NCBI GenBank assembly: GCA_964636275.1
Contig: CAZWRN010000003.1
Span: 4,423-68,422, forward strand
DNA: 64,000 bases
Reading direction: 5' to 3'
DNA from: an uncultured Gammaproteobacteria bacterium
GTDB taxonomy: Bacteria > Patescibacteriota > Microgenomatia > Daviesbacterales > UBA10151
Made by a program: the position numbers and the translations under genes
Shown here: positions 18,345 through 56,132 of the stretch, one piece after another
How the letters are laid out: each line of letters begins with the position of its first letter
How positions within the stretch are numbered: position 1 is the stretch's first letter
Notes under the pieces: model-generated
What the model was told of the DNA's origin: nothing
The model's input: only the letters and a program-made list of their open reading frames with translations
Database searches by the model: none

Positions 18345-18347
18345 AAC

Positions 18348-20843: not shown

Positions 20844-21424
20844 CTCGAAAACTACAAAAAGGATTTACTTTAATTGAGATTTTGATAGTTATGGCGTGTT
20901 CTGCAATCATTGGTACAATTTTAGTAACAATTTTAGTTCAGGGGAGCTCTATTTTTAGTGATCAAACCACCAAAGTAAATCAAAATCTTTCACTCAATAG
21001 TGCTAGCAATCAAATAGATCAAACTGTCCAATATGCTTCTCAAATATCAGCTAATTACATCGACGGATCTACTACCTACACCACCAGTGACAAAGTATTA
21101 ATTGGTAAACTTCCTGCTATTGATTCCTCAGGTAATGTTATTGAAAGTAAATTTGACACATTTATACTGATGCAAGATCCGGTAAACAGCGCCTATTTAA
21201 AAAAGCTGATTATTCCTGATCTTTTAAGTAGCAGAAAAAGTGAAGATATGACTTTACTAAACCAAATGACCTTTCTGCAATTTGTATATCTCAACGATAG
21301 TGCGGTGGTAACTACCCCTCAAACCGCTTCAAAAATAGATTTTGTTATTAAAGTGGCCGAAAAATCCGGTAACGGTATCAAAGAAAGCTCCATTAGCGGG
21401 CGAATAAATTTAAAAAATATATGA
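20840..21424 (+). CDS. minor pilin (KG|FTLIEIL)
   Basis: Prepilin motif; 194 aa. Confidence 0.7.
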   Translation: MTRKLQKGFTLIEILIVMACSAIIGTILVTILVQGSSIFSDQTTKVNQNLSLNSASNQIDQTVQYASQISANYIDGSTTYTTSDKVLIGKLPAIDSSGNVIESKFDTFILMQDPVNSAYLKKLIIPDLLSSRKSEDMTLLNQMTFLQFVYLNDSAVVTTPQTASKIDFVIKVAEKSGNGIKESSISGRINLKNI

Positions 21425-23247
21425 AAATCAGCCTATCTGAAAATGGACAAACTATCATCTTTGCTCTAGTTGTACTTACAGTGGTAATTGTAGGTGTTTT
21501 GGTGATGATTTCCGGATCTTTCACCTCAAAACAAAACAGTCGCTATAGTTTGGATTCACTTGATGCTTCCTCAATTGCTGAAGCCGGAATAGATAAAGCC
21601 GTGGCAACACTCAATAAAACAGCTGGTCAGTATAATGGCGAAACTGAAACTCAGCTTGGAAATGGTTCATATATCGTAAAAATCACTCCGATCGATGCCA
21701 ACACTTTTCAGGTTGAATCAACTGGATACGTCCCGTCTGTCCAAAATTATAAATCAAAACGAACAGTTTCTGTCCGGGTGGAAAGAGGTGATGGTATGGC
21801 ATTTGCCTATGGGGTGCAAGTTGGGGATGGCGGCTTTAGTATGAGTGGCGGGTCCCGTATTAACGGTTCTGTTTATTCAAATAACGATATTAATATCTCT
21901 GGTGGATCAATAATTACCGGAGATGCTTATGTGGCAGGAGGAACTCAACCGACTGCTGACCAATTATCCACCTGTACCCCGCCAAATTGTCTTGATTATT
22001 TATTTGGTAAAACAGTTTCAGGAAATACAATTTTAGATTTAGCCCAAAGTTTCCGGCCATCTACAACTGCGGCTATCAATAAAGTGGCGGTAAATGTCAA
22101 AAAGTTTGGCTCTCCACCCAATGTCACCGTTCGCATATTAGGTGATAATAATGGTAAACCCAACAAAAATGATGTACGAACCTCAGGTACATTGAATGCA
22201 AACTTAGCTAGTTCACAGTATGGATTTGTTGAGATTGGACTTCTGCCTTCAGCCTCGTCGACTTTAACAGCCAATAATGTATATTGGATTGTCATTGATA
22301 CATCATCTGATGCAACAAATTACTGGAGCTGGCAAATTGACTCTTTAAGCGGATATACCACTGGTTCAGCCAGTTGGTCTCCCAACTGGCAGGCAAATGG
22401 AAATCCAGTTTGGAACCCTGTCTCTGGAGATTTGCTCTTTAAAACATTTATGGGTGGCAAGATCAACAAAATTGCTGGTATAGGATCCTCAACTATTAAC
22501 GGAAACGCATATGCCAATACCTTAACTGGTGACAATCCATCTGCCCTTCAAATAGGACTGGATGCTTATTATCAAACTGAATCAAGTATTAGAGTTTCTG
22601 GACAAAACTGTTCAAATAATACTCACTGTCATCCGGGATCACCTGATCTGCCAGCTTTACCACTACCTGTTTCAGAAGCCAATATCGCTGAATGGAAATC
22701 ATTTGCCGATGATGTAGTCCAAACAGGTGATCTAAATATACAATGGCCATGCACCACTACATTAGAAAAGAAAAAATATGTCGGCAACGTCACAGTTGGT
22801 GGCGGTTGTAGTATACAAATCGACACTCCTGTTTGGATTACCGGAAATCTTACATTAGGTGGTGGAGCCAGTGTCAAACTTAAAACAAGTTATGGTTCTA
22901 GTTCAGGGATCATTGTAGTAGATGGGGTTACATCACTTGCCGGAGGAAGTACATTAAAAGGCTCAGGAAGTACGGGATCTTATATGATGGTAATTTCAAC
23001 TAACAATAACCTGGTTAGTCCTTATGCGATTAGCATAAATGGTGGAAACAGTTCTTCTATTTTATATGCCCCCTATGGAGCAATCTATTTATCAGGCGGA
23101 AGTAATTTAAGAGAAGCATCGGCATATAAAGTTGTGATGGACGGTGGGGCTATTCTAACCTACGAAACAGGTGTTGCAAATCCATTTTTTTCATCTGGGC
23201 CTTCTGGATCATTTAGTGTTGTTAAAGGAACCTACCAAAGTAAATAA
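21421..23247 (+). CDS. large pilin-like protein (E5-less N-terminal helix NGQTIIFAL plus PilX_N-like segment) fused to a ~550-aa Gly/Ser-rich, beta-helix-like domain; candidate pilus tip adhesin
   Basis: N-terminal pilin-like TM helix and AEAGIDKAV segment. Repetitive GGS...SGG...GG blocks are spread through the C-terminal region. Confidence 0.5.
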   Translation: MKISLSENGQTIIFALVVLTVVIVGVLVMISGSFTSKQNSRYSLDSLDASSIAEAGIDKAVATLNKTAGQYNGETETQLGNGSYIVKITPIDANTFQVESTGYVPSVQNYKSKRTVSVRVERGDGMAFAYGVQVGDGGFSMSGGSRINGSVYSNNDINISGGSIITGDAYVAGGTQPTADQLSTCTPPNCLDYLFGKTVSGNTILDLAQSFRPSTTAAINKVAVNVKKFGSPPNVTVRILGDNNGKPNKNDVRTSGTLNANLASSQYGFVEIGLLPSASSTLTANNVYWIVIDTSSDATNYWSWQIDSLSGYTTGSASWSPNWQANGNPVWNPVSGDLLFKTFMGGKINKIAGIGSSTINGNAYANTLTGDNPSALQIGLDAYYQTESSIRVSGQNCSNNTHCHPGSPDLPALPLPVSEANIAEWKSFADDVVQTGDLNIQWPCTTTLEKKKYVGNVTVGGGCSIQIDTPVWITGNLTLGGGASVKLKTSYGSSSGIIVVDGVTSLAGGSTLKGSGSTGSYMMVISTNNNLVSPYAISINGGNSSSILYAPYGAIYLSGGSNLREASAYKVVMDGGAILTYETGVANPFFSSGPSGSFSVVKGTYQSK

Positions 23248-23299
23248 TTCAGTAGATCTAGTATAAATATTCAATCTGTTCTACAATAAAACTGATCAA

Positions 23300-23333
23300 A
23301 TCAGAGTAAGTATCTGCTCTCATCTGATTTTAA
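23300..23333 (+). terminator. possible weak intrinsic terminator or attenuator between the pilin block and pilM
   Basis: Imperfect stem AAATCAGAG...CTCTcaTCTGATTT followed by TTTT. Confidence 0.25.
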
Positions 23334-23340
23334 CCGAATT

Positions 23341-24381
23341 ATGGCTGCCCAAAACCGTGTTGGTATTGATATTGGTGTCTCATCTATAAAGCTGGCTGTG
23401 CTCTCAAAAAACCAGGAAAATGCTCGTTTAATATCCCTTGGCCATATCCCCTCACCCATTCCAGGCATAGCATCGGAAGCAGAACTTGACTTAGAAGCAG
23501 TAGCAACAGCTTTAAAAAAATTATATGAGGAGGTCAATCCTCCAACTCGTGATGTAGCAGTCGCTTTACCCGAATCTAAGATATTCACCCGAGTGATTTA
23601 CGATTTACCATATTTGTCTGATGATGAACTAGCTCAAGCGATCCGTTATGCTGCAGAAGAGTTTGTCCCTATGCCTATGAAAGATGTCAATTTGTATTAT
23701 CAAGTCATCTTTCGTTCACCAAAAAAGGAACCAAACAGTCGTACTGTAGTTTTTGTAGTTGCAGCTCCAAAAAATCTGATTGATAAGTACTTAAAGGTGT
23801 TGCAAAGTGCCAACTTAAGGGTAGTTGCAATTGAAACTGAAGTTCTAGCTACAGCTAGATCTCTGGTAACTTTTAATACTTTTTCACCTACTACCCTGAT
23901 TATTCAACTTGGCGCATCAAATACTGACTATGCTGTCATATCAGAAGGGTTAATTCTACTTACCAGATCTATAGCCACAGGTGGTAATACTCTGACACGA
24001 TTAATTGCTCAAAATTTTAATTTTGAAGGTGTTCAGGCTGAAGAATATAAAAAAGTATATGGTGTCCTGGAAGATCAATTAGAAGGTAAATTATTTAGAA
24101 CTTTAAAACCGGTTATTGATGTGATCGTTACGGAGGCTAAAAGAGTAATACTGGCTCATGAGATGCAAAACAAACAGAGACCTATTAAACGCGTCGTTTT
24201 AACTGGAGGTGGTGCTAGAATGCCTGGTCTAGTTAGGTATTTTGCCAGTTTCTTAGGTCTCGAAGTCGCTGAAGCTGACCCTTGGGGAGCAGTCGAAGTT
24301 GATCCAACTTTAAAACAGAAACTAACAGCCGAAGCACCTTTTTACTCTGTTGCCGTAGGTTTAGCCCTTAAAGATGTCTAA
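23341..24381 (+). CDS. pilM: type IV pilus assembly protein PilM (actin-like ATPase fold)
   Basis: N-terminal GIDIGVSSIKLAV and an FtsA/PilM-like architecture. Confidence 0.85.
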   Translation: MAAQNRVGIDIGVSSIKLAVLSKNQENARLISLGHIPSPIPGIASEAELDLEAVATALKKLYEEVNPPTRDVAVALPESKIFTRVIYDLPYLSDDELAQAIRYAAEEFVPMPMKDVNLYYQVIFRSPKKEPNSRTVVFVVAAPKNLIDKYLKVLQSANLRVVAIETEVLATARSLVTFNTFSPTTLIIQLGASNTDYAVISEGLILLTRSIATGGNTLTRLIAQNFNFEGVQAEEYKKVYGVLEDQLEGKLFRTLKPVIDVIVTEAKRVILAHEMQNKQRPIKRVVLTGGGARMPGLVRYFASFLGLEVAEADPWGAVEVDPTLKQKLTAEAPFYSVAVGLALKDV

Positions 24382-24392
24382 ATAAACCACTT

Positions 24393-24956
24393 ATGGATCG
24401 TATCTCCATTAATTTATTACCAATAGATTTAAAAGAAAACAAAAAACTGCTTTATAAAAAAAAGCTCGTAAATTTAATCAGCTCAATAACTGTGGTTATA
24501 CTTATAGTAGTGACAGGTATATTGGTCATACTGTCGGTAATCCAAAATAGTCAGGTTGGTAAGGAAGAAACAGATATTTCAAGGCTTGAAAACACACTCT
24601 CATCCTTGAAAGAAAAAGAAGCATCTGTAGTGATATTAAAAAAAAGATTGGCCAGCATATCTCAAGTTATCAAACATAAATATCCACAGACGGATTCATT
24701 TCTTTTAGTCTCATCACTCTTGCCAGAAAATGTAACACTTCAAAATTTTGTTGCTGAACAGCCCAACACAGTAACTCTTCAAGGCATCGCCGCCAACGCA
24801 GCATCACTGCAGCATTTTTTTGACAATTTAACCGATCCAAAAATCAATGAGGGTAAGATTACAAAAACAGTTATTTCCAATCTAAACAGAGGCAATTCCC
24901 CGCAACTTAACTTTGATTTAGAGGTGTCAGTCAAGGTAGAAGGAGGGAATAAATAA
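24393..24956 (+). CDS. pilN: type IV pilus assembly protein PilN (single TM + periplasmic domain)
   Basis: Position after pilM, N-terminal TM segment, and size. Confidence 0.55.
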   Translation: MDRISINLLPIDLKENKKLLYKKKLVNLISSITVVILIVVTGILVILSVIQNSQVGKEETDISRLENTLSSLKEKEASVVILKKRLASISQVIKHKYPQTDSFLLVSSLLPENVTLQNFVAEQPNTVTLQGIAANAASLQHFFDNLTDPKINEGKITKTVISNLNRGNSPQLNFDLEVSVKVEGGNK

Positions 24957-25697
24957 ATGGATCAGGTATTAAAAACTTTTAGACAGTATCAGGTTATTAT
25001 ACGTCGCAATCCTCTCTATGCTAAATACAGTCTTTTTATCATCCCAGCCATAACTATAATTATAAGCGTGTTAATTCTTGTATTAGTAACTATTCCTCAG
25101 ACGTTTAAACTCATTAAAAATAATCAGCTGGTTGAAGAACTAAAACAGCAAAAAACTGCATATCAATCTAAAATTACAACACTCAATAAAGTTGACACAA
25201 CCCAATATAAAACAGATTTAAACAACGTTCTAACGATCCTGCCAAACGAGAAAGAAATCCCCTCCGCAATTAATAGTATTTTACAAGTGATATCTCTATC
25301 CGGTCTTACTCTAACAAATTTTTCAATAGGTAATAGTGGAACACCAATAAATGGAGTTGAAAATTTTATTGTAAGTATTGATGTAACCGGATCTGCAAAC
25401 CAAATTAAAGAGTTGATAAATTTCGCGGATCGATCTTCAAGATTGATCAAAATTACCAGTCTAAGTTTGAACTATGGTTCAGACGGGGTTTCCCAAACGA
25501 CTATTGATGTTTTGGTTTTCTATGCTCCTCTGGATACCTCAATCAAAACAGATGATTCACAAGCCATAACTCTACTTTCTTCTGATGATCAAACTTTACT
25601 TGATAAAATCAAACAAAACACCCAAAGTATATCTTCATCTCAAACTACCCCCCCTATCCTAGATAGCCCGACAGGCAAAGATGATCCATTTAATTAA
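24957..25697 (+). CDS. pilO: type IV pilus assembly protein PilO-like
   Basis: Position, single TM segment, coiled-coil. Confidence 0.5.
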   Translation: MDQVLKTFRQYQVIIRRNPLYAKYSLFIIPAITIIISVLILVLVTIPQTFKLIKNNQLVEELKQQKTAYQSKITTLNKVDTTQYKTDLNNVLTILPNEKEIPSAINSILQVISLSGLTLTNFSIGNSGTPINGVENFIVSIDVTGSANQIKELINFADRSSRLIKITSLSLNYGSDGVSQTTIDVLVFYAPLDTSIKTDDSQAITLLSSDDQTLLDKIKQNTQSISSSQTTPPILDSPTGKDDPFN

Positions 25698-32785: not shown

Positions 32786-33463
32786 TTAAGGCAAAGTAGT
32801 AAAGGTATTATCTCCTGAAGTTGTGGAGTTATTGGCATTATCTTTAGATGTGACCCTGAAATGATAAGTTGTATTTGGCTCTAAATCAGTAATTTCCAGT
32901 GAATGAGAACTTTTTTTGTCACTGCTATCTTTATTGGAACTATAGGAAGTATCTTTCCCGTACTCGACTTTACTATCTGAGTCTTCATTGGTCTTCCATT
33001 CAATAGTGACCTTATTATTTCCAATGTTTACCGATTTTATCTCTGACAAAACCGGGCCACTAGTATCGGTATTTGAAGGCGAATTACTTGGACTGGGGCT
33101 TGGGCTGGGACTAGGTGAAGGTAAAGGACTGGGTGACAATGATGGTGACACTACAGGGCTTGGAGATATCTTAGCTGTTGGAGAAGGTGACTGAGTAGGT
33201 ATACTCTGTGGTTTATCCGGCCCTATAGCAGCCGCCTGTTCAGATATGATTCCTGGTTGCTGGGTTTGAGAATTTTTTGATTGCGCTCCTAAAACAGAAG
33301 CATAATCAGTAGGAGTGGGACTGGGTAAACCCTGAGGTGTATCAGATCCCATAGAAGCTAGAAACACGACCAAACCAAAAACAGACAAAATTGCTGCTGT
33401 TATTGCTACAGAATAGATATATATATTGCTATTTTTTAGTTCGCTCTTTAACTGATTCCACAT
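32786..33463 (-). CDS. membrane-anchored Pro/Ser-rich protein with a C-terminal fibronectin-III-like domain
   Basis: N-terminal TM segment, (SP)n low-complexity linker, then an FN3-like region (TIEWKT...YHFRVTSKDNANN). Confidence 0.6.
   Translation of the reverse strand: MWNQLKSELKNSNIYIYSVAITAAILSVFGLVVFLASMGSDTPQGLPSPTPTDYASVLGAQSKNSQTQQPGIISEQAAAIGPDKPQSIPTQSPSPTAKISPSPVVSPSLSPSPLPSPSPSPSPSPSNSPSNTDTSGPVLSEIKSVNIGNNKVTIEWKTNEDSDSKVEYGKDTSYSSNKDSSDKKSSHSLEITDLEPNTTYHFRVTSKDNANNSTTSGDNTFTTLP
33060..33180 (-). repeat. SPSPSP-encoding low-complexity nucleotide repeat
   Basis: Reiterated gg(a/g)ct(g/a)gg units on the + strand. Confidence 0.6.
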
Positions 33464-33534: not shown

Positions 33535-33741
33535 CTATTTTTTAGCGCAGATTTTACATTCAGATTTATGAGTCATCAGTACATACACACCTGAAGCGCC
33601 AACTAAAAGATATACAATACTCTCCAAACCAGGCATTCCACCCAGCAACATATTTACTAAATTGTAGCCCAAAGCAGTCAGACCCCAGTTGATAGCACCA
33701 ACTGCAGTTAAAAGGAAGGCAACCATATGCAGCATTTTCAT
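33535..33741 (-). CDS. DUF378-family small membrane protein
   Basis: LLTAVGAINWGL ... LVGASGVY two-TM pattern. A strong AAGGAGGTGA Shine-Dalgarno sequence lies 7 nt upstream. Confidence 0.7.
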   Translation of the reverse strand: MKMLHMVAFLLTAVGAINWGLTALGYNLVNMLLGGMPGLESIVYLLVGASGVYVLMTHKSECKICAKK

Positions 33742-33873: not shown

Positions 33874-34062
33874 ATGTGTTACAACTGCGGATGCCATATG
33901 CCAGAAGACGATATGGGACTTGGCTCGGCCGGTAAAGACCCTAAAGGTAAATCCATAACCGAAGAAACTTTCAAAGCAGCAGCTGAATCTCAGGGAATGA
34001 CCGTTAAAGAAGCAAAAGAAGAAACTTTAAAATTACTTAAAAAAGAGCTTGGTTATAAATAA
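33874..34062 (+). CDS. small Cys-motif protein (MCYNCGCH..., 62 aa)
   Basis: N-terminal CxxCxC, then a charged helical tail. No Shine-Dalgarno sequence, so coding status is uncertain. Confidence 0.3.
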   Translation: MCYNCGCHMPEDDMGLGSAGKDPKGKSITEETFKAAAESQGMTVKEAKEETLKLLKKELGYK

Positions 34063-34083: not shown

Positions 34084-35169
34084 CTATTCTATATCGCAGC
34101 GGTTCTCACGATAGTTTTTGGTATATCCGATATTACAACTCCAACCATCTGTGTTCATCTCTAAATGCGCATTGTCTGGTAAACTTACTTTCCGGCAAAC
34201 TTGAGAACCAAAATCTTTGATATATCCTAATTTACAAGTCCAAGAGCTTCCTTGCCAGACTATATGCTCAGTCGTAAACTTCTCACATTTATCACCTTTT
34301 CTGATATAACTACTAATACAACTCCAGCCATCAATCGATGAATTATCAAGTCTCGCATTTTCAGGGACTACGACCTTCACACACTTTCTAAGCTCTTCAT
34401 TTCGTTTATAGCCTGATTCACAGTAAAACTGGCTCCCATGTTCATAAAATGTGCCATGCTCAACTACTTCTACTTTGACGCATCGATCACTTTGTTTATC
34501 GTATCCGGGATCACACTCAAATCCTTCTGCGGTGACTTGACCATAATGCGGTACAAAGATTGATTCACAGCTATTTTTTTCACGATTTTTCACAAAACCT
34601 TTATTACATTGCCAATCATTACCTAAATACGTCAAATGAGCATTAGCAGGGATTTCAAACTTTTTACATTCACTCCCCTCTTTTCTAAATTGATTGTTAC
34701 AGTACCAGTCAAAACCCTGGTCAAAAAATTTAGCATCCTTAGGCAGTTCAACTTTGACACATTTGTCTTCAATTCTCTGATAAGTAGCTATACACGTCCA
34801 ATCATTACCAGTCGCTTCAAGCACCGCATTTTCTGGCAATCTTAATTCGTTACACTGATCATTTTCTCGGATATAGCCCCGTTCACAAACAAAATCATCA
34901 CCTGAATAATTAAGTTTAGCATGCTCTGGAATCACTACTTTTTGACATAGATTTTGAGAAGCAATTTTTTTATACCCTACCTGACAGAGCCAATCTGTTT
35001 TTTGAGAGTTTAAAACACCATTCTCCGGTATGTTTATCTTTTCACACTCCCCACTCGCAAAGTTAAACTTTTGCTCCGAAGGACAGCTGACAGCGAAAGT
35101 AGGATGAGGAAATATAAAATTTATAACGACAATAAAAATTATAATAGTTATATTTAGTAAGTAATTCAT
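34084..35169 (-). CDS. secreted Cys-rich tandem-repeat protein (about 10 repeats of 31-33 aa, two Cys each), translationally coupled to the RND pump gene
   Basis: Signal-peptide-like N-terminus (MNYLLNITIIIFIVVINF). Repeats follow the pattern C-x-K/E-V-x-I/L-P-x-N/H-A-x-L-x5-DW-x-C-x2-GY. The ATG overlaps the RND stop codon (ATGA). Confidence 0.7.
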   Translation of the reverse strand: MNYLLNITIIIFIVVINFIFPHPTFAVSCPSEQKFNFASGECEKINIPENGVLNSQKTDWLCQVGYKKIASQNLCQKVVIPEHAKLNYSGDDFVCERGYIRENDQCNELRLPENAVLEATGNDWTCIATYQRIEDKCVKVELPKDAKFFDQGFDWYCNNQFRKEGSECKKFEIPANAHLTYLGNDWQCNKGFVKNREKNSCESIFVPHYGQVTAEGFECDPGYDKQSDRCVKVEVVEHGTFYEHGSQFYCESGYKRNEELRKCVKVVVPENARLDNSSIDGWSCISSYIRKGDKCEKFTTEHIVWQGSSWTCKLGYIKDFGSQVCRKVSLPDNAHLEMNTDGWSCNIGYTKNYRENRCDIE

Positions 35170-38100
35170 TTGCGAGCGGGTGCTTTGGGAGCAAAGATCA
35201 AATAATAAACCACGGGGATGAAAAACAACATTATAGTTCCAGAGAAAGTTAAACCCGCGATGATCGCTCCTCCCAAACCTCTCCACAGAGGATCCGAGAT
35301 AGTTATTGGAATCAGTCCAGCAATGGTACAGACTGAAGTTAAAGCAATTGGCTCAAGTCGGGAGGCTGCTGCATCAGCAACCGACTCTGAAAACTCCATA
35401 CCAGATTCCTGATTGATCAAAATCTTATCAACCACCAAGATCGAATTTTTCACCACTATTCCGAATAAAGCTAAAATACCGATCAAAGCTGGGAATGACA
35501 GCGGAATCTGAGCCATTGCAAAGATAATAAATACACCAGATATAGAAAGTGGGATAACAAGCATGACTATCAATGCCCGTCTAAAAGATTTAAACTGCAG
35601 CACCATCGTGATAATAATCAGTAAAAATGACAAAATCATCGCTCGTAGTATCGAGTTTACGGATTCCTGATTTTCTTCATTCACCCCACCGGTAGCCCAA
35701 CCATATCCAGTCGGTAAATTGAGTGAGTTCGCATACTCTTCTAGTTTGGTGTTAATATCAGCTAGCACATATCCTTCTTGAACACCAGCTGAAACAGAGA
35801 TCGTTCTTTTACCATCTTCTCGAGTAATCAACGTTGGATTGGTAGCAAGCTCCAGTTTACCCAAAGCTGAAAGATGCACTGTTCCACCGGTTTGGGTTGG
35901 AATAACAAGTGTTGTGATATCTTCCACAGTTTGGGTTCCAGATCCCAAACGGATAGTGACATCTTCAGTCAGATCTTGGTCACCAGAAAACTTTAGCTCA
36001 TCTGCCTCAAAACCAGAGGCATACAATCGTAGCCAAAAACCAAGCTGATCAACCGTGATATTATTTTCAGCCAGCTTAGCTCGATCTGGTACAAAAGTCA
36101 GCTTACTCGTGCCTGGTTTAATGGATTTATTGATATTATTTACACCAGCTTGCTGTGACAAATAATCCTGAATACTGTTGGCGTATTGATCCAGTGTCTT
36201 CAGATCCGGTCCAAATAGCTTGATCTGTAAATCTGCACCAGCTGGTGGACCTCCTGAAATCTCCTGAACAGAAAGAGTACCTTTAGTATAATCTGCAAAG
36301 TTATTGCGCAAATGTTGGGCTATCTCGGCGGAAGTCTGATCACGCTCTTCATATAAAGCCACTGAATAAAGGAAACTGTTTGCTCCTGACCCAGACGGCC
36401 CACCGAAATCAGCTCCATAACCTCTCCCAAGCTCCAACGTAACGGTTTCCATGGCCGGAGTAGATTTAAACCGCTCCAACAATCCCAGAGCCTCTTGTTT
36501 TGCAGTCTGAATATTTGTTCCAGAAGGCAGCTCTACTGATACGTAAATGGTATTTTCATCTGAGCCTGGGAAAAATTCTGACTTTACTAGACCGAGTGGA
36601 ACCAAAGCATATGAAAATAGTGAAAAGATAACCACCATAATTATGGTGTTTCTTCTGGCTTTTTTAGAGACCAGGATCCGATGAATAAGTTTGTTGTAGG
36701 AACGTTCGATCCCATGGAAACTAATTAATCCATTGTCCATCACCTGACTAAGTCGAGCTTTAGCACCAGGTGAGCGTAGAAAACCTTTGGTGAGTGCTCC
36801 AAGTAAAGCATCCCGTACCAGATACACAATCAAAACAAATGCCACCAACACAATCAGCTGTGGTACTAGCAAAGTTCCTTTGGGAATCAGGAAGTAAAAA
36901 CCGGCAACTATGCCCAGCAACAACAATACTCGAGTTAGTACTACGACTCGAAAAGGTATTTGCGGCTTCAACAGGAAGATCATTAAAGGCAAAATAATAA
37001 ATAAAGCCACAAAAATTGAAGCAATCAGGGTCGCCGATACGATAATAGGGATTGGTTTAATAAACTCACCAATGATTCCGGTTGAAAGAAGCAACGGAAT
37101 AAATGCCCAAACGGTCGTAATCGTGGTAGTTAAAATAGCTACCCAAAAATCTTTCCATACCAACAATCCGGTTTGCAAAGGGGTAAATTTACCTGAACGG
37201 TAATAAGCTGTCATAGCTGAAATCACCACGATTGCATCATCTACCAAAAGTCCTAGCGACAAAAGAAGTGAAAAAGTAGCCAAAAATGACAAAGCAATCC
37301 CAGTAAACTGCATGACAACAAAGGTGATTAAAAAGGTCAGTGGAATAGATAACATTGAAACAAATGCCTGCCTGATACCTAGGAAAAGCAAAAGAACAAT
37401 AAATACTAGTGTGATCACAATTGTGATATCACGCTGCAGATGATCAAAAGATTCGTCCACCTGTTCAGCAGTATTTACGATAGTAAAAACCTGAAAACCA
37501 TTACCACTGTGCGCCAATTTTTCCTTTACTTTTTCTTCAGCCTCTTTATTGGCTACATCAAAATTAACCCCTGAAACTCGATACACGGAAAAGGTCACTG
37601 CCGAACTTACTTCATGATCATGCAGCAAGAAAGACTCTGTTTGGTCTGGTTTTGAGATCTCCCTAATCTCAGCAATTTCTACCAATGACACAACTTGGCC
37701 ATCTAAATTAACTTTGGTTTCACGCAGCTGATCAATCGAACTGACCGCAGGATCAATAGTCAAAGAAAATATAGAGTTATCAGTTTTTACATTTCCTGCA
37801 GGATATGAACTAATCGAGCTTTTAATTGCTCCCATTAAAACCTGTGGGTTGACTCCATAAGTTGTAATTGCCGTGGGCTTAACTACGATCTGAACCTCTT
37901 GTTCATCAAGTCCGGTGATCTCAACATTATCAATACTGGCTAGATCTTCCAGCTCTTTCTGCAAATCTCGAGAAAATCGGATCAGACTTCCCCGATCTTT
38001 AGCTCCTGCCAAAGAAAACGTCCAAATAGGTTGATTTTCAAAATCAAGTTTTTGAACATTTGGATCCAAAGCATCTTCTGGTAAGTCGCCAACTGCATCC

Positions 38101-38489
38101 ACTGCCGACTGCACATCTGATTTAGCTTTATCAGCATCATATCCAGATTCAAATTCGATTTGAACTACAGATGCAGATTCACGAGATGTTGAAGTTACCG
38201 TCTTTACTCCATCTACACCTCTCACTGCATCCTCTACCGGTACAGTGATCAGTGATTCAATATCAGCTGGATTTGCTCCCGGTAATACAGTGGAAATAAT
38301 AACAATCGGTATCTTAATTTCTGGATTGAGGGTTCGCGGTAGAGCAAAGTAGGCCTGGGTACCAAAAGCAATAACACCCAAGACGATTAATACCAAAAAT
38401 CGGAGGTTGGTTAGATAACTGGCAACCCACCCAGCTAGCAACCTTGGATCAAATTTGAGTTTGCTTAAATACGTTGATGCAGTATCCAT
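35166..38489 (-). CDS. RND-superfamily efflux transporter (AcrB/HAE-like, 12 TM)
   Basis: 1107 aa, the typical 2 x (1 + 5 TM) topology, and large periplasmic loops. Confidence 0.9.
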   Translation of the reverse strand: MDTASTYLSKLKFDPRLLAGWVASYLTNLRFLVLIVLGVIAFGTQAYFALPRTLNPEIKIPIVIISTVLPGANPADIESLITVPVEDAVRGVDGVKTVTSTSRESASVVQIEFESGYDADKAKSDVQSAVDAVGDLPEDALDPNVQKLDFENQPIWTFSLAGAKDRGSLIRFSRDLQKELEDLASIDNVEITGLDEQEVQIVVKPTAITTYGVNPQVLMGAIKSSISSYPAGNVKTDNSIFSLTIDPAVSSIDQLRETKVNLDGQVVSLVEIAEIREISKPDQTESFLLHDHEVSSAVTFSVYRVSGVNFDVANKEAEEKVKEKLAHSGNGFQVFTIVNTAEQVDESFDHLQRDITIVITLVFIVLLLFLGIRQAFVSMLSIPLTFLITFVVMQFTGIALSFLATFSLLLSLGLLVDDAIVVISAMTAYYRSGKFTPLQTGLLVWKDFWVAILTTTITTVWAFIPLLLSTGIIGEFIKPIPIIVSATLIASIFVALFIILPLMIFLLKPQIPFRVVVLTRVLLLLGIVAGFYFLIPKGTLLVPQLIVLVAFVLIVYLVRDALLGALTKGFLRSPGAKARLSQVMDNGLISFHGIERSYNKLIHRILVSKKARRNTIIMVVIFSLFSYALVPLGLVKSEFFPGSDENTIYVSVELPSGTNIQTAKQEALGLLERFKSTPAMETVTLELGRGYGADFGGPSGSGANSFLYSVALYEERDQTSAEIAQHLRNNFADYTKGTLSVQEISGGPPAGADLQIKLFGPDLKTLDQYANSIQDYLSQQAGVNNINKSIKPGTSKLTFVPDRAKLAENNITVDQLGFWLRLYASGFEADELKFSGDQDLTEDVTIRLGSGTQTVEDITTLVIPTQTGGTVHLSALGKLELATNPTLITREDGKRTISVSAGVQEGYVLADINTKLEEYANSLNLPTGYGWATGGVNEENQESVNSILRAMILSFLLIIITMVLQFKSFRRALIVMLVIPLSISGVFIIFAMAQIPLSFPALIGILALFGIVVKNSILVVDKILINQESGMEFSESVADAAASRLEPIALTSVCTIAGLIPITISDPLWRGLGGAIIAGLTFSGTIMLFFIPVVYYLIFAPKAPARK

Positions 38490-38618
38490 ATGTTTAAAAA
38501 ATTCGAAATCCTAACTTCTAAATTCGAAACAATATCTAAATTCAAAATTAAAAACCTTTTGTCTTGATTTATTATTTCTAATTTTTCGGATTTCGTGATT
38601 CTAATTTCGAATTTATAC
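38490..38618 (-). repeat. intercistronic octamer-repeat element (TTCGAAAT/TTAGAAAT/TTTGAATT) between the MFP and RND genes
   Basis: In mRNA sense it ends ...TTTCGAATTTAGAAGTTAGGATTTCGAATTTTTTAAAC-ATG. Confidence 0.6.
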
Positions 38619-40079
38619 TTAAGGTTTTACTTGTACTTGATCTCCTTCAACCACAGTTCGAGATAAAATCACTTCATCATTGGCTCCGATCCCATCGGTT
38701 ACTGCTACAAAACGACCCTGTACTTGTCCCAACTGGATTTTTCTAGATTTAGCTTTACCTTCACTAACAATATAAATCACGGACTCATCCTGAGTCTGAA
38801 AAATAGCATCAAGTGGGATAAATGGCACCACTGAGTTTGTATCTGGAGCACCAACTGGAATATCAATTTGAACAAATGATTTATCAGTAAAAAGCTCTTT
38901 ATATTCATCACCCAATACATATAACACTGAATACATTTGGCCGTTTGTGGCTTCAGAGGAAACATAGTATGGAGCCAAATCCAAAGTCTTTTCACCAATA
39001 TGAATAGTGGATTTTTCAAATTTCGAAATATTTTTAGCTGTTGATGCAGGCACCAAGGCATTTAAAACAATATCATCAGTGGTTTGATTTAAAGTAGCTA
39101 AGACGGTTCCAGGATTTACCGATTCTCCTACTCGAACATGAATTCGCTCAATAGTAGCGGCAAAAGGAGCCGCCGGATACATTTGAGCTTCAGTAATTTG
39201 CGACGCTAAGAGAGACAGATTGGAGATTTGTCTATTTGCCTCTAAAGATTTTTCTTGGATATCTAGATTTTTTAAAGTAATTTCCCTTCCCAAATCAGAC
39301 AATTGAGCTGGTGGTCGATCAGAAGCTGATTGATATTCAGCTTGACGAATTCCCTGTTTCAACTGATTGATAGCACCTAAAAATTGAGCTTTTTGACCAT
39401 TTAAACTAGCCTGAGCGGAACCAGTTGATTGCGAAATCTGTGCATCCAGAGAAGCTAACAAAGACTCATTTAAATCCAGCAAAGACCGAGATTCTTCTAA
39501 AGACCTGTTGGCAATATCACGAAGCTGATCAGCATTAGCATCGGTTCTTTCAGCAACTTCTCTTTGTTTTGAGATTAGATCTTTCTGAGTATCATATGTT
39601 TGATTGGAAAGATTATTTTGTGTCTGAGCAATTTGTCTGGCCACTGACAAAGCGTTTCCACCTTGGTAATTTGAGGCTAAACCGATCAGATTTTGACCTT
39701 TGCTGACAACATCTCCTTCAATTACATTGATATATGAAACAATACCAGGCATCTGGGCTACTACTTTAATCACTCCACTTTTTTCAACCTGAGCCTGTGT
39801 AGAGATTTTTGGTGAAGAACCTATTTTGAAAGTTTGAACAGATTTAACAGTCGCCTGTTTTGGTTGCTCTGTAGGTTTGGCTTTAAAAACAGTACTTCCT
39901 AACACAATCAAAGCTAATAAAATGATAAGTGATAAAAGAAAACTAACAAATGGACGCCTGGAAATAAATTTTGAAATTCTTTGAACACTTTTCTTACCCA
40001 AATAACCAATTCTGGAAAAAAAAGTTTTTACTTTAAGTAAGGATTGATTCATTGATAATTGTTTGTTTGAATTTGCCAT
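38619..40079 (-). CDS. periplasmic adaptor / membrane fusion protein (HlyD-like) of the RND pump
   Basis: N-terminal TM segment, biotin-lipoyl-like segments, and a long coiled-coil. Confidence 0.8.
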   Translation of the reverse strand: MANSNKQLSMNQSLLKVKTFFSRIGYLGKKSVQRISKFISRRPFVSFLLSLIILLALIVLGSTVFKAKPTEQPKQATVKSVQTFKIGSSPKISTQAQVEKSGVIKVVAQMPGIVSYINVIEGDVVSKGQNLIGLASNYQGGNALSVARQIAQTQNNLSNQTYDTQKDLISKQREVAERTDANADQLRDIANRSLEESRSLLDLNESLLASLDAQISQSTGSAQASLNGQKAQFLGAINQLKQGIRQAEYQSASDRPPAQLSDLGREITLKNLDIQEKSLEANRQISNLSLLASQITEAQMYPAAPFAATIERIHVRVGESVNPGTVLATLNQTTDDIVLNALVPASTAKNISKFEKSTIHIGEKTLDLAPYYVSSEATNGQMYSVLYVLGDEYKELFTDKSFVQIDIPVGAPDTNSVVPFIPLDAIFQTQDESVIYIVSEGKAKSRKIQLGQVQGRFVAVTDGIGANDEVILSRTVVEGDQVQVKP

Positions 40080-40089
40080 ATTTTGAAAA

Positions 40090-40116
40090 TTGTATAGAAC
40101 GACAGACTTTATACAA
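40090..40116. promoter_or_regulatory. inverted repeat TTGTATA-N13-TATACAA in the divergent MFP / atpB control region
   Basis: Perfect 7-bp arms at 40090-40096 and 40110-40116. Confidence 0.3.
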
Positions 40117-40240
40117 TATTTTGTACCACGTCAAGATAGAAGAGCCAGTATATATTATTATAGGTCCAAAGTCAATCTCAGTTGTCTTCATTTACGGATC
40201 TATTGCGCCTCAGACTCATTTTTACTACAATTACCGCGTT

Positions 40241-41155
40241 ATGGACGTCCATGCTACAAAAACAAATATTGATCACAATGTACCCAGTGATCTCTCAGAA
40301 CAAATAATTCAAGAAGAACATACTATTGAAAACAATCAACATGCAGCTTCTACTGAAGGTCATCCGACAGGAACTACCGAACATGCTGTCGAAGGAGGCC
40401 ATGGTGAAGGAGGCTCTTCACATATCGTTTTAGCTCCTGAAACATTGGGATATCTTGGACCTTTGCCAGTTACAAACACTTTACTTGTATCATGGATCGT
40501 AATGGCTATTTTGATCGCTTTAAGTATTGCTGCCACCAGAAAAACAGCCTTAGTCCCTGTTTCCCGGCTTCAAGGGATGTTTGAAATAGTGATTGATGCT
40601 GTTTATACCTTAGCCAAAGATTTAGCAGCCGATAAGGCCAAAGTTTTCTTTCCTATTGCACTGACTTTCTTTCTATTCATTTTTACAGCCAATTTATTAG
40701 GGCTTTTTCCAGGATTTGCCACCATTGGATTCAACCGAGTTGAAGAAGGTCATACCGTCTGGATTCCACTTCTGCGTTCTATGGGATCAGATCTAAATAT
40801 GACTTTAGGTCTAGCTTTAGTATCAGCTGGACTCACACACTACTACGCAGTTAAATACCTTGGTGTTGGTGGCTATCTCAAAAAATGGTTTTCTCTCAAT
40901 CCAATAATGCTTTTTGTGGGAGTTTTAGAGCTAGTTTCCGAAGTTACAAAGGTAGTCTCGCTTTCTTTCAGACTTTTTGGTAACATATTCGCCGGAGAGG
41001 TAGTATTAGCCACCATCTCAGGATTACTGGCCTTTATTGCTCCTCTACCGTTTTATTTTCTGGAATTAATTGTTGCATTTGTTCAGGCAGCTGTGTTTAT
41101 GATGCTAACACTAGTATTTATGGCTTTACTGTCTGAAAAACACGAAGCACACTAG
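40241..41155 (+). CDS. atpB: F0F1 ATP synthase subunit a
   Basis: Five TM helices; C-terminus with a conserved Arg/helix-5 pattern. Start trimmed from the spurious 40052 ORF extension. Confidence 0.8.
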   Translation: MDVHATKTNIDHNVPSDLSEQIIQEEHTIENNQHAASTEGHPTGTTEHAVEGGHGEGGSSHIVLAPETLGYLGPLPVTNTLLVSWIVMAILIALSIAATRKTALVPVSRLQGMFEIVIDAVYTLAKDLAADKAKVFFPIALTFFLFIFTANLLGLFPGFATIGFNRVEEGHTVWIPLLRSMGSDLNMTLGLALVSAGLTHYYAVKYLGVGGYLKKWFSLNPIMLFVGVLELVSEVTKVVSLSFRLFGNIFAGEVVLATISGLLAFIAPLPFYFLELIVAFVQAAVFMMLTLVFMALLSEKHEAH

Positions 41156-41190
41156 TAAATAAGCACGAAGCACTAATTTCGAAGCACGAA
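41137..41190 (+). repeat. direct repeats (A)AGCACGAAGCAC x3 spanning the atpB stop codon
   Basis: aaacacgaagcacactag / taagcacgaagcactaa / tcgaagcacgaaataa. Confidence 0.5.
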
Positions 41191-41299
41191 ATAAATTCGA
41201 AATCAAAAAAATTAAATTTAAAACTTTTAATTTTATATTTTGAATTTGTTTCGAATTTCGAGATTCGAATTTCGAATTTATAAAGAAAGGAGTTAATAA
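41160..41299 (+). repeat. intercistronic octamer-repeat element upstream of atpE
   Basis: ...TTTTGAATTTGTTTCGAATTTCGAGATTCGAATTTCGAATTTATAAAGAAAGGAG...ATG. Confidence 0.6.
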
Positions 41300-41500
41300 A
41301 TGGAACTTAATGCTTCATTTACTATTGCTATTGGTGGTATTGCACCAGCTTTGGCAATCGGTTTAATTGGTATGAAAGCTATGGACGCCATCGGACGCAA
41401 TCCTGATGCGCAGTCTAAAGTTCTGCCAGCGATGCTTTTGGGCATGGCTTTTGCAGAAGCTATTGCGATTTACGCTTTAGTTATCGCTTTCACCATGTAA
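41300..41500 (+). CDS. atpE: F0F1 ATP synthase subunit c
   Basis: 66-aa hairpin proteolipid with the conserved carboxylate in FAEAIAIYALV. Confidence 0.9.
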   Translation: MELNASFTIAIGGIAPALAIGLIGMKAMDAIGRNPDAQSKVLPAMLLGMAFAEAIAIYALVIAFTM

Positions 41501-41590
41501 TTCGCTACACAAAAATGGTCATTCTGGTGAGTAGTAGCGGCTCCAGATGTAAATCTGAAATCCAGGATGGCTTAGTTTCAAAAATTTAAC

Positions 41591-42079
41591 GTGGATAAAT
41601 TTATTAGTGATTTTGGGATTCAGCCCATTCTACTTCTAGCACAGATCGTCAATTTTGCGATCTTACTTTTCTTGCTCAAAAAGTTTCTTTATGGCCCAAT
41701 CATTAAAGTATTAGACAAAAGACGTGACACTATTGAGGAAAGTCTCAAAAACGCTGAAGAAATCGAACTAAAACTTGCAAAAACTGAGGAAGAATACCAA
41801 AAAAGAATTGATAAAGCATCTAAAGAATCTCGCGATATGATTGAAGAAACATCCAAAGCCACTCAGCACATGATGGCTGATGCCAAAGCTCAGGCAACTC
41901 TGGAAATGCAGGATATTTTAAAAAAGGGTCAAGAGTCTATTCAAATGGAAAGACAAAAAATGCAACAAGAGATGCGTTCTGAACTCACTCAATTAGTTAT
42001 CAATACACTCGAACAAGTCACTGGTAAAGTAGTATCGAAAAAAGATCAGATCGATATTATTGAAAAAGCAGTTAAATAA
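41591..42079 (+). CDS. atpF: F0F1 ATP synthase subunit b (GTG start)
   Basis: N-terminal TM segment followed by a long charged helix. Confidence 0.75.
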   Translation: MDKFISDFGIQPILLLAQIVNFAILLFLLKKFLYGPIIKVLDKRRDTIEESLKNAEEIELKLAKTEEEYQKRIDKASKESRDMIEETSKATQHMMADAKAQATLEMQDILKKGQESIQMERQKMQQEMRSELTQLVINTLEQVTGKVVSKKDQIDIIEKAVK

Positions 42080-42084
42080 GTGGC

Positions 42085-42161
42085 AAGTCGCCAGAGTCAA
42101 GTGACAAGGATTTTTTTAGTCACCCTAGACTCTTGACTCTAGTCACTTGAAACTAAATCTT
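42085..42161 (+). promoter_or_regulatory. structured intercistronic element: AGAGTCAAG(TGAC) can pair with either CTTGACTCT or GTCACTTGA, and the element ends CACTTGAAACTAAATCTT-ATG
   Basis: 9-bp complementarity 42093-42101 / 42132-42140, or alternatively 42097-42105 / 42142-42150. A near-identical element flanks the four-helix-bundle gene. Confidence 0.5.
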
Positions 42162-42554
42162 ATGAAAAAAAATAAAAAATTAGACAAAATCATCACTCAG
42201 GCCGTCCAGGCTTCTATCAAAAATGGAGCTATTGACCAGACCAAAGTAGCCCAATTTACAAAAAACTTTAAATCTTTCTCTCTCGAAGATGCTGTCTATA
42301 GTCTCAAAAAATACCAAAAAGGGCTGAAAAATTTTATCAGCCAACACACTATGACTATTTTTGCAGCTACTGAACTACCTAAAGAAACTTTAACCAAGAT
42401 TAAAAATTCATACAATTCTAATTCGAAATTAGAAGTTAGAAATTTGAAATTTCATTTAGACTCTTCCCTTTTGGCTGGGTTTAAGTTTAAAATTGGCGAT
42501 GAAGTATATGACAGCTCTCTAAGGAGATCTCTAGAAAAGCTAAAGATCCAATAG
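42162..42554 (+). CDS. atpH: F0F1 ATP synthase subunit delta (OSCP), short form
   Basis: Position between atpF and atpA, helical; 130 aa from the ATG at 42162. Confidence 0.55.
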   Translation: MKKNKKLDKIITQAVQASIKNGAIDQTKVAQFTKNFKSFSLEDAVYSLKKYQKGLKNFISQHTMTIFAATELPKETLTKIKNSYNSNSKLEVRNLKFHLDSSLLAGFKFKIGDEVYDSSLRRSLEKLKIQ

Positions 42555-42667
42555 CTGTCAAAATTCTGATAACTAATTTCTAAAATCTAAACAATTAAAA
42601 TTTTAAAAGTTTAGGTATTTGGATTTATTTAGAAATTAGAAATTCGGATTTAGAAATTTATAAATAT
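42555..42667 (+). repeat. intercistronic octamer-repeat element upstream of atpA
   Basis: ...TTTAGAAATTAGAAATTCGGATTTAGAAATTTATAAATAT-ATG. Confidence 0.6.
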
Positions 42668-44155
42668 ATGGCAAATATTATAGAAGATATTGAAAAAGAT
42701 ATTAAAAACCTGAAGCTAAAAGCTTCCAAGCAAAACGTGGGTACTGTCACTGAAGTTGGTGATGGTATCGCCCGTATTGAAGGACTTTCACAGGTCCAGG
42801 CTTCTGAATTACTAGACTTTGGCAAAGGAATTTTTGGTTTAGCCCTCAATTTAGAAGAATACAATGTTGGTGCTGTTATCTTTGGTGATTACACCCAGGT
42901 AAAAGAAGGTCAGCAAGTCACCACAACCGGAAGAATTTTGGAAGTTCCAGTTGGTGATGAGCTGATTGGCCGAGTTGTTGACCCGCTTGGTCAGCCTCTT
43001 GATGGCAAAGGTCCTATTAAAACCAAAAAAATGTATCCAGTTGAAAAAATTGCTCCTGGTGTGATTACCCGAAAATCAGTCACTGTACCTCTCCAAACTG
43101 GTATTAAAGCAATTGACGGCATGATTCCAGTCGGACGAGGCCAGCGAGAACTGATCATTGGGGATAGAAATACCGGTAAAACAACTATTGCTGTAGATAC
43201 TATCATCAATCAGAAAGATGTGATCTGTATTTATGTGGCAATTGGTCAAAAAGTCTCCAAAATTGCTCAAATCGTAGCTAAACTAGAAGAAACTGGTGCA
43301 ATGAAACATACCGTTGTAGTCCTAGCATCTGCTTCAGATCCAGCACCTTTGCAATTTTTGGCTCCTTACTCTGGTACTTCAATGGGCGAATACTTCATGG
43401 ATCAAGGCCAAGATGCTTTGATTATTTATGACGATTTATCCAAACACGCCAATGCCTACAGACAGATGTCTCTGCTTCTCAGACGCCCTTCCGGACGTGA
43501 AGCTTACCCAGGTGACGTTTTTTACCTGCACTCTCGACTTTTGGAAAGATCAGCTCGACTAAATGAAGATTATGGCGGTGGTTCACTCACAGCTTTGCCA
43601 GTGATTGAAACCCAAGCTGGTGATATTTCAGCTTATATCCCCACCAATGTGATCTCCATTACCGATGGTCAGATCTTTTTAGAGCCGGATCTCTTTTTTG
43701 CCGGCGTCAGACCAGCTATTAGTGTCGGTCTGTCAGTTTCTCGTGTCGGTGGATCAGCTCAAACCAAAGCGATGAAGTCTGTAGCTGGTAAATTAAAGCT
43801 GGAACTGGCTCAGTATCGTTCGTTGCAAGCTTTTGCTCAGTTTTCATCTGATCTTGATCCGCAAACCAGAGCTCAGCTCGAACGAGGAAAAAGAATGTCC
43901 GAGCTCCTCAAACAACCAGCTTATTCCCCTATGCCAATGGAAGAGCAAGTAGTTGTCTTCTGGGCTGCTACCAATGGCTATTTGGACAATATCCCAGTTG
44001 AAAAAGTTCGCGATTTTGAAGTCCGACTTCTCCAAGACATGAAAGCCAGATACAAAAAAGTCATTTCTGAGATTGCAGAAAAAAAGGTTCTGGATGAAAA
44101 ACTAACTAAGGAATTGGAGAAAATCCTTAAAGACTTCACCAAGTCCTTCAAATAA
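42668..44155 (+). CDS. atpA: F0F1 ATP synthase subunit alpha
   Basis: Walker A GDRNTGKT; 495 aa. Confidence 0.95.
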
Positions 44156-44159
44156 ACTC

Positions 44160-45062
44160 ATGCCTAATACCAGAGAACTCAGACGACGGATCAGATCTGT
44201 CAAAAATACCGCTCAGATCACCAAAGCGATGCAAATGGTCGCTGCTACCAAGATGCGCAAAGCCCAAAACCAAGCTATGGCCGGTCGACCTTACAATTTG
44301 ACACTTAATGAAGCCATGACTCTTCTATTACCCAAACTTAAAGACAACAACCATCCACTTCTCAAAGAGCAAACAAAAGGCAATTCAGCAGTGTTACTCC
44401 TTTCAACTGACAAAGCTCTTTGTGGTTCTTTGAATACCAATTTATTTAGAGCGACTCTCAATTTTATGAAAGATCAAAAAAATAATGTTTTTTACACTCT
44501 TGGTAAAAAAGGTCGACAGTTTTGCGTCAGGTCTGGCTATGATCTAGCTGCAGATTTTGAAAATTCGGACTTAGTCACCTTTAGAACAGCTTCACAAATT
44601 GCTAGACTCGTCACCAAGAGCTTTTTGTCCGGTGAAATAAAAGAGCTTTATATTGTCTACCCGGATTTTGTCTCAGCTCTCAGACAGGAGCCCAAAATCG
44701 TTCGTATTTTACCGGTCGATTTTCAAAACTTAGTTCAAACGCTTACTCCAGAGTTAGCTAACAAAAGTCGTCAGTCGTCAGTCGTCAGTCATCAGCAAAA
44801 CAACTCCGAGTTTCTGTTTGAACCCTCCATTGATGAACTACTGGATTTCATCTTAAACCACTTTGTTCAGGTCAAAATATTCCAGGCTATGATGGAAACC
44901 AAAGCCTCTGAACACTCAGCTAGGATGATCGCCATGCAAAATGCGACAGATAATGCAAAGGAGCTTGTATCTGACCTCACTCTTGCGTATAATCAGACAC
45001 GACAGGCTGCAATTACCAGTGAATTGTTAGAAATAACATCAGCCCAAGCAGCGTTAGAATAG
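44160..45062 (+). CDS. atpG: F0F1 ATP synthase subunit gamma
   Basis: N-terminal RIRSVKNTAQITKAMQMVAATKMRKAQ and a C-terminal helix. Confidence 0.9.
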   Translation: MPNTRELRRRIRSVKNTAQITKAMQMVAATKMRKAQNQAMAGRPYNLTLNEAMTLLLPKLKDNNHPLLKEQTKGNSAVLLLSTDKALCGSLNTNLFRATLNFMKDQKNNVFYTLGKKGRQFCVRSGYDLAADFENSDLVTFRTASQIARLVTKSFLSGEIKELYIVYPDFVSALRQEPKIVRILPVDFQNLVQTLTPELANKSRQSSVVSHQQNNSEFLFEPSIDELLDFILNHFVQVKIFQAMMETKASEHSARMIAMQNATDNAKELVSDLTLAYNQTRQAAITSELLEITSAQAALE

Positions 45063-45098
45063 AGTCAAGTCGCAAGGATCAAGAGTCAAGGATAAGGG

Positions 45099-46854
<1,756 letters not shown>

Positions 46855-56083: not shown

Positions 56084-56132
56084 AATTCGAAATATTATAC
56101 TTCCAAATGGCCAAAGCTACAAGATTATATTC

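Follow-up and report, generated by a model that had tools for sequence, protein, structure and literature searches.

Does the third gene of an efflux operon in a bacterium without an outer membrane encode a part of the pump, or a secreted protein that is merely transcribed with it? The question is raised by a minus-strand trio at 34084-40079 of the 64,000-nucleotide stretch analysed here (contig CAZWRN010000003.1; hereafter the window), in which our open reading frame (ORF) calls and family matches recovered, in the order already given by a first-pass annotation, a membrane fusion protein (MFP, the periplasmic adaptor; 38619-40079(-), 486 aa), an AcrB-type, HAE-1-like permease from the RND (resistance-nodulation-division) superfamily (35166-38489(-), 1107 aa) and a signal-peptide repeat protein, here called gene 3 (34084-35169(-), 361 aa from the ATG at 35169). 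The first-pass annotation had seen in gene 3 a conserved third partner of the MFP-RND pair, translationally coupled to it and hence co-expressed stoichiometrically. We instead lean, with somewhat better than even confidence, towards an ordinary MFP-RND pump of a single-membrane (monoderm) cell, behind which a lineage-specific and co-transcribed secreted repeat protein forms the tail gene of the operon and is not a pump component.

This preference follows from the distribution of the three genes among relatives. Scanning species-representative genomes for the RND permease, we obtained 25 loci, of which the informatively titled ones were all Patescibacteria (RND identity of 71% in Daviesbacteria, 60% in Levyibacteriota, and ~50% in Moranbacteria and Parcubacteria). 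The MFP-RND pair was kept in 25/25 related loci, with the MFP upstream of the RND gene in every locus that contained upstream DNA. Gene 3 was present in all 12 loci in which RND identity was at least 72%, and absent from 14/14 orthologous MFP-RND operons at 45-62% RND identity in which downstream DNA was present and was searched by BLAST and a motif scan. The expectation that homologous MFP-RND pairs are always followed by a Cys-repeat gene thus held within the close clade and failed outside it, and gene 3 can no longer be regarded as a conserved third partner of such pairs. What follows the RND gene in the operons lacking gene 3 is mutually unrelated: a SIMPL/DUF541 gene directly (L019, L028) or after a MutY-like gene (L022, L024), a DsrE-like gene (L037), or a convergent gene for polyprenyl synthase (L021, L026), MFS (L034) or ATP-grasp (L025). 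The SIMPL/DUF541 proteins are membrane-anchored and occur in a sister clade with ~60% RND identity, in some but not all of its members (L019:10354-11142; L028:4068-4841; L024:11182-11967; L022:11182-11970).

Viewed from gene 3 itself, a word-indexed homolog search yielded 31 proteins, and all homologs of at least 39% identity with enough upstream DNA lay directly after the RND gene on the same strand, in 12 distinct loci (the window, L014, L015/L001, L003, L004, L031, L013, L016, L017, L023, L039 and L040/41). These loci share one syntenic block, made up of a divergent atp operon, MFP-RND-gene 3, and further on DUF378, an fn3 protein, a class Ib (Trp/Tyr-type) tRNA synthetase and RecG. Homologs at 25-33% identity lay on contigs from outside the candidate phyla radiation (CPR) that carry no RND gene (3/3 contexts), and neither RND nor MFP genes were found near the repeat gene in any of 80 metagenome loci of this non-CPR subfamily (430 kb of flanks), the loci having been found with an alignment of the subfamily. 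Gene 3 would thus have been acquired, or retained, behind the pump in one sub-lineage only.

The junction between the RND gene and gene 3 is variable as well. In the window, the ATG of gene 3 (35169-35167) overlaps the TGA of the RND gene (35168-35166), as the first-pass annotation had read, giving an ATGA at 35166-35169(-) (sequence ...cgcaaATGAatt). The same distance of -4 nt occurs in four loci (the window, L014, L023 and L039), and in the eight others the gap amounts to 17, 17, 42, 45, 78, 105, 168 and 321 nt. A coupling that ranges from -4 to +321 nt is not conserved, and the claim of stoichiometric co-expression built on it is not sustained. The longest ORF around gene 3 spans 34084-35286(-), from which the internal ATG at 35169 yields the 361-aa product; the corresponding 400-aa ORF with a GTG start was rejected as gene 3, since every homolog has an N-terminus that lines up with the ATG at 35169.

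In several relatives, the gap between the two genes is filled by a long imperfect palindrome (L013:3349-3414; L015:10400-10550, equal to L001:7839-7989; L016:3970-4057), and a similar one is found in L040:1093-1413. The palindrome has conserved ends (GTCATTCC ... AGGATGAC(G/A)AAA) and folds with -30 to -62 kcal/mol. Each of the loci L013, L015/L001 and L016 has a single copy, at this junction and nowhere else; the window, with its overlapping genes, has none, and an Rfam scan of these intercistronic palindromes gave no match. As an intercistronic element, the palindrome could act in processing, attenuation or stability, or else it could be a small inserted repeat element; it would decouple translation and could set differential expression.

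What kind of protein is gene 3? Its sequence contains 22 Cys whose spacing strictly alternates between 11/13 and 17-21 residues, far beyond chance. On the basis of Cys spacing, repeat alignment, an AlphaFold2 model and a match to PF12946, the mature product (34084-35091(-)) consists of an N-terminal cap and 10 tandem repeats of 31-34 aa with two Cys each, whose mean pairwise identity is 30% and whose consensus reads (I/L/V)-P-x-N-A-x(5-7)-G-x-D-W-x-C-x2-G-Y-x(5-8)-C. It measures ~38.6 kDa, with a pI of 5.6 and no C-terminal anchor. Across homologs of 230-436 aa, the number of repeats ranges from ~6 to ~12, and 14-22 Cys are present where they were counted (ORFs of 232-362 aa). The dN/dS of ~0.11 relative to L014 and L015 indicates that gene 3 is real.

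Secretion of the third protein, also claimed by the first-pass annotation, is predicted from its N-terminus and from the pattern seen in its homologs. Residues 3-21 form the only strongly hydrophobic 19-mer (Kyte-Doolittle 2.38), followed by TFA-VS, and residues 3-19 are modelled as a helix by AlphaFold2; the predicted Sec signal peptide (aa 1-26; 35092-35169(-)) would be cleaved after TFA. Homologous N-termini follow MK(Y/F)LK...(F/S/Q)A-(S/T), in which an n-region of the form MK..L(K) leads into a hydrophobic core and then a small-x-A site before the (S/T). We also considered a lipoprotein, which was rejected since the loose AVS-C lipobox of the window protein is unconserved in homologs (VQASQ-C, VSASE-C).

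The only Pfam match of gene 3 is to PF12946 (EGF_MSP1_1; 42.8 bits against a gathering cutoff of 27), a match that all close homologs carry as well in precomputed annotations, while NCBIfam gave none. As in arrays of epidermal growth factor (EGF) domains, such as those of NELL2, Delta-like proteins and Pfs25/Pvs25, the Pfam score lies above cutoff and C-x2-G-Y-x(5-8)-C resembles the EGF C5-C6 loop. However, an EGF domain has six Cys per ~40 aa, whereas the gene 3 unit has two per 31-34 aa, and the structural matches are weak: Foldseek retrieved from the PDB the EGF arrays of NELL2, Delta-like 1 and Pvs25/Pfs25/Pfs28 and the cysteine-rich domain of TNFR1 at E-values of 2e-4 to 0.1 and TM-scores of at most 0.18, and a sequence search of the PDB gave no match at E<=1. 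The PF12946 model catches the C-x2-G-Y...C hairpin, and gene 3 is better called a bacterial two-Cys hairpin repeat protein.

This repeat reaches far beyond the pump. A profile of gene 3 homologs, searched against 1.84 billion cluster representatives, detected 1,806 relatives (1,114 at E<=1e-10), examples of which carry the P-x-N-A...W-x-C-x2-G-Y...C unit in proteins of 190-1010 aa, fused to domains such as PG_binding_1, Pkinase, Peptidase_C14 (caspase), TerB, MORN and PEGA. Because so many relatives have varied and unrelated domain partners, the two-Cys repeat is a generic bacterial extracytoplasmic module. With its tandem units and predicted signal peptide, gene 3 falls within this family. 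Our literature searches turned up nothing specific on PF12946 (EGF_MSP1_1) in bacteria, nor on RND pumps in CPR.

Two further roles for gene 3 can be weighed against its architecture. First, 22 Cys in a protein predicted to be secreted could act as thiolate ligands, in which case gene 3 would be a substrate- or metal-binding chaperone of the periplasm or wall that feeds the pump, like CusF in CusCFBA; weak or faint CzcB/CusB-type domain matches among the MFP homologs and a score of 258 bits of the permease on the CusA/CzcA model point the same way. Yet multidrug models give the permease a higher score (431 bits), it retains GLLVDDAIVV, a motif of AcrB type, and gene 3 lacks similarity to CusF or any metal-binding family, as no Pfam, NCBIfam or PDB sequence match besides PF12946 was obtained. 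Moreover, the even number of Cys, their conserved pairs in the rigid EGF-like C-x2-G-Y-x(5-8)-C, and confidently folded hairpin repeats resembling disulfide-rich EGF/TNFR arrays fit structural disulfides rather than free thiols. A metallochaperone is, consequently, improbable.

Second, the first-pass annotation had offered a wall-spanning conduit in place of the outer-membrane factor (OMF), or the cargo of the pump, as roles for the third protein. Both draw on its third position in an MFP-RND operon without an OMF, and on nothing else. An OMF consists of PF02321 (OEP) repeats in an alpha/beta-barrel of ~450 aa, and gene 3 has no OEP match; its AlphaFold2 model (32 sequences; pLDDT 86.7, pTM 0.41) contains short beta-hairpins only and depicts a flexible thin rod of two-Cys repeats with neither barrel nor lumen. 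As for cargo, the predicted Sec-type signal peptide of its own would make export of gene 3 independent of the pump, and the gene is missing from the orthologous operons described above. To our knowledge, HAE-type RND pumps extrude small molecules and not folded 38-kDa proteins. We therefore regard a channel or a cargo as the least probable of the roles considered here, and very improbable in absolute terms.

If gene 3 is no conduit, can the pump operate with its two other components? The permease matches PF00873 (ACR_tran) over its full length with 507 bits, two stretches reaching profile position 1020 of 1021, and its hydrophobic segments cluster at residues 32-50, 354-558, 616-634 and 946-1104, which fits a layout of 1+6 and 1+5-6 transmembrane (TM) helices and agrees with the full-length ACR_tran architecture of 12 TM helices and two large extracytoplasmic loops. 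The closest solved chains are MexK, TriC-like, MdtB and AcrB, all aligned over the full length (residues 27-1102 in the case of MexK). In TM4, GLLVDDAIVV aligns with GLLVDDAII of MexK, so that the Asp-Asp proton-relay pair is retained, and the permease would act as a proton-driven RND trimer. At the same time, it falls below all NCBIfam subfamily cutoffs (best NF033617, 431 bits versus 1250; TIGR00915, 253 versus 940). Judged by these sequence matches, it is an HAE-1-like but divergent lineage of the superfamily, and one for which the OMF partner that typifies HAE-1 pumps (PMC8277102) is lacking, as there is no OEP gene in the window and the clade of the host is monoderm.

The RND gene also appears as a recombination mosaic when compared with L018. 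From 41020, on the atpB side, through the MFP gene to ~38020, the two sequences are ~96% identical, and from there identity drops to ~70% as far as 35891, where the L018 contig ends before gene 3. In comparison with L014, atpA is 94.5% identical, and the RND gene and gene 3 are 76% identical. Most of the RND gene has, on these identities, been swapped between related strains, with a sharp breakpoint inside the gene at ~38020.

The adaptor matches HlyD_3 and Biotin_lipoyl_2 and scores 78 bits, below cutoff, on TIGR01730. Its start is ambiguous, the public protein from the same contig (P0179, 477 aa) being nine codons shorter. In its AlphaFold2 model (alignment of 40 sequences, pLDDT 78.8), an N-terminal TM anchor (aa 43-63) is joined to a split lipoyl domain, a beta-barrel, a membrane-proximal domain and an alpha-hairpin, that is, the four-domain adaptor fold, and Foldseek relates it to TMexC, AcrA, MacA, MexA and EmrA at E-values of 1e-17 to 1e-13 and a probability of 1.0; a PDB sequence search with the MFP matched the lipoyl domain only. 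The modelled hairpin is very long, with helices at 143-217 and 221-298 whose arms of ~75 residues would extend over ~110 A at 1.5 A per residue. This is about twice the arm length of AcrA and nearer to that of EmrA or HlyD. EmrA (4tko) has the lowest rmsd, 9.2 A, among the top 20 Foldseek matches. EmrA and HlyD, however, pair with MFS or ABC transporters that have no large periplasmic domain and dock to TolC, whereas the present adaptor has an RND partner and no OMF.

Thus, the locus resembles AcrAB-TolC and MexAB-OprM (HAE-1) in its full-length ACR_tran permease, the TM4 Asp-Asp pair, the AcrA/MexA-like four-domain adaptor fold and the order of MFP before RND, but differs in that no OMF gene lies in the window of a monoderm host, that a TM helix anchors the adaptor, which has ~75-residue arms and lacks the RLS tip, and that MFP and RND both stay below NCBIfam subfamily cutoffs. 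The R-x3-L-x6-S (RLS) tip motif has been described for adaptors that engage an OMF (PMC8277102), and it was found neither in the MFP of the window nor in 19 orthologs. A closer parallel is offered by Gram-positive pumps of the MacB type, such as YknXYZ and Spr0693, which show that MFP-dependent pumps exist without an OMF and conserve the hairpin (PMC4338810), and whose adaptors YknX and Spr0693 form MacA-like hexamers (PMC8277102). Homologs of our MFP indeed match PF25989 (YknX_C), although the partner in those pumps is a MacB-type ABC transporter and here it is an AcrB-type RND permease. From these models and parallels, the MFP hexamer itself may form the exit duct across the wall zone, its ~110 A hairpins building a tube as is thought for the hexameric adaptors of the Gram-positive pumps, and a third conduit protein would not be needed.

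A two-component pump of this kind presupposes a single-membrane cell. Many of the metagenome-assembled contigs among L014-L038 are third-party annotations titled 'uncultured Gammaproteobacteria bacterium', although their gene content is of Patescibacteria type and their pump orthologs are 48-83% identical to ours, so that these titles look like default or mislabelled taxonomy; MFP homologs bear the names of Curtissbacteria, Roizmanbacteria and Patescibacteria. The host is a Microgenomatia-like bacterium of the Patescibacteria/CPR type, and CPR bacteria have been placed in a monoderm clade (bioRxiv 10.1101/2021.05.31.446380). A Pfam sweep of window ORFs of at least 100 aa, other than those that simply overlap longer genes (the atp-operon ORFs 44160-45062, 45099-45461 and 45433-46854, as well as 41591-42554, were assigned by position only and stood outside the sweep) detected Mur ligases, an F-type ATPase and a type IV pilus locus, and neither an OEP/TolC nor a Secretin match. 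The first-pass annotation, which had reported no TolC-like gene and no pilus secretin and had deduced a cell without an outer membrane, is borne out in the first two respects. In a monoderm host, a missing OMF is to be expected, and the premise of a host without outer membrane, and hence without OMF, appears reasonable, the absence of TolC applying to the window. The pilus locus (12160-25697) comprises PilB/T/C/D (PilD being the prepilin peptidase), PilM/N/O and seven N-methyl pilins or pilin-like proteins without a secretin, and is complete and monoderm-style; it includes a 608-aa ORF (21421-23247) without a Pfam match.

The evidence that ties gene 3 to the pump, and thereby weighs against our reading, deserves equal attention. 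Adjacency of the RND gene and gene 3 is invariant in the 12/12 clade loci, on the same strand, despite gene 3 identities as low as 39% and a reshuffling of the downstream genes; such invariance amid reshuffling is the pattern expected from selection for co-expression, and no other observation speaks more strongly for a functional link. The ATGA overlap is kept in four loci, and the SIMPL gene found behind the pump in some members of the sister clade may be a sign that this position favours a third envelope partner of variable identity. Furthermore, we infer both the localisation and the disulfides of gene 3, and an adhesin-like role comes from its architecture and the domain partners of its relatives only.

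From this evidence an accessory role can be construed, in which gene 3 would be a genuine, lineage-specific subunit whose rod docks on the MFP tube or on the periplasmic domain of the RND permease, and lengthens or guides the way out across the wall or S-layer, or modulates adaptor assembly. Besides the adjacency and the overlaps, purifying selection on gene 3 at the dN/dS given above is compatible with such a role, and precedents exist in YknW, an accessory fourth component of the MFP-dependent pump YknXYZ (PMC4338810), and in YbjP, which is bound to AcrABZ-TolC and MacAB-TolC (PDB 9tg4, 9v53 and 9qgy). Gene 3 itself has no similarity to YknW. The orthologous pumps at 45-62% identity dispense with gene 3, and a repeat number that varies about twofold, a gap of up to 321 nt with strong hairpins, which speaks against fixed stoichiometry, and the use of the same repeat by many unrelated proteins are difficult to reconcile with a dedicated subunit. 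Neither is there a counterpart in the adaptor: the hairpin tip varies by indels even within the clade that carries gene 3, and no clade-specific MFP indel separated the lineages with gene 3 from those without, so that an MFP insertion as the mark of a docking site was rejected. Overall, we hold an accessory subunit to be possible but unlikely. More specifically, and rated slightly lower still, a secreted two-Cys rod might have been recruited in one Microgenomatia sub-lineage as the third extracellular component of an RND-adaptor pump lacking an outer membrane, where it might dock on the long adaptor tube to convey efflux across the wall or S-layer or to direct it towards a host cell.

In the reading that we favour, that of a plain two-component pump followed by a tail gene, gene 3 would instead be the last cistron of the same transcript, and its product a Sec-secreted, disulfide-stabilised, rod-shaped protein that stays outside the pump and most likely serves as a surface or wall-associated, adhesin-like binding protein. 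Secreted Cys-rich proteins of CPR genomes have been proposed to function in attachment and vary between strains (PMC4736985), and a binding role of gene 3 at the surface or wall would fit by analogy. The proteins described from Peregrinibacteria share with gene 3 a signal peptide, richness in Cys, strain variability and a CPR genome, but they average ~1,655 aa and resemble Myxococcus Cys-rich repeats, and the two are likened here by description (PMC4736985).

The surroundings of the operon complete the description of the locus. Upstream of the MFP gene lies a sigma-70-like sequence, TTGACT-17-TATACT (40147-40175(-); 10/12 matches in a consensus scan), which is a promoter candidate only, as the region holds no more promoter-like sites in total than shuffling leads one to expect. 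On the other side, the unit is closed by a converging ORF of 62 aa (33874-34062(+); beginning MCYNCGCHMPEDD), which recurs in L014 and L015 and belongs to no Pfam family. Further downstream, 32786-33463(-) and 33535-33741(-) between them encode a DUF378 small membrane protein, with conserved synteny of its gene across most relatives, and a membrane-anchored fn3-domain protein that contains a linker rich in Ser and Pro and was seen in the closest relatives L001, L014 and L015; many envelope proteins are encoded in this neighbourhood. The gene for ATP synthase epsilon (58433-58906(+)) lies ~11.5 kb from the rest of the atp operon (40052-46854(+)). A trio of Aminotran_5, CDP-OH_P_transf and NTP_transferase(DUF6564) genes at 55358-58129(-) recurs at L008:4559-7348, directly upstream of the distant repeat homolog P0029 on a contig without an RND gene, which may be a coincidence. 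Finally, a collection of 15 billion proteins includes the MFP and RND proteins of this NCBI contig but not the exact 361-aa gene 3 protein, for which the best match is 87% identical; the source record may lack a call for gene 3 or contain a different one.

It is a recognised gap in knowledge how MFP-dependent pumps operate in cells lacking an outer membrane (PMC4338810). To this, the locus adds an AcrB-type RND permease with a TM-anchored, long-hairpin adaptor, a pair that is conserved across many Patescibacteria, and the very long MFP hairpin suggests that the adaptor alone could serve as the exit duct. No new class of pump component comes to light with gene 3; were it nevertheless a recruited third component, a non-OMF protein would for the first time have been described as the third partner of an RND pump in a monoderm cell. 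Gene 3 is a lineage-specific member of a large, uncharacterised bacterial family of extracellular two-Cys repeat proteins that Pfam files under a Plasmodium EGF model, an assignment that is useful for annotation and provides a modest lead for the surface and attachment biology of CPR bacteria.

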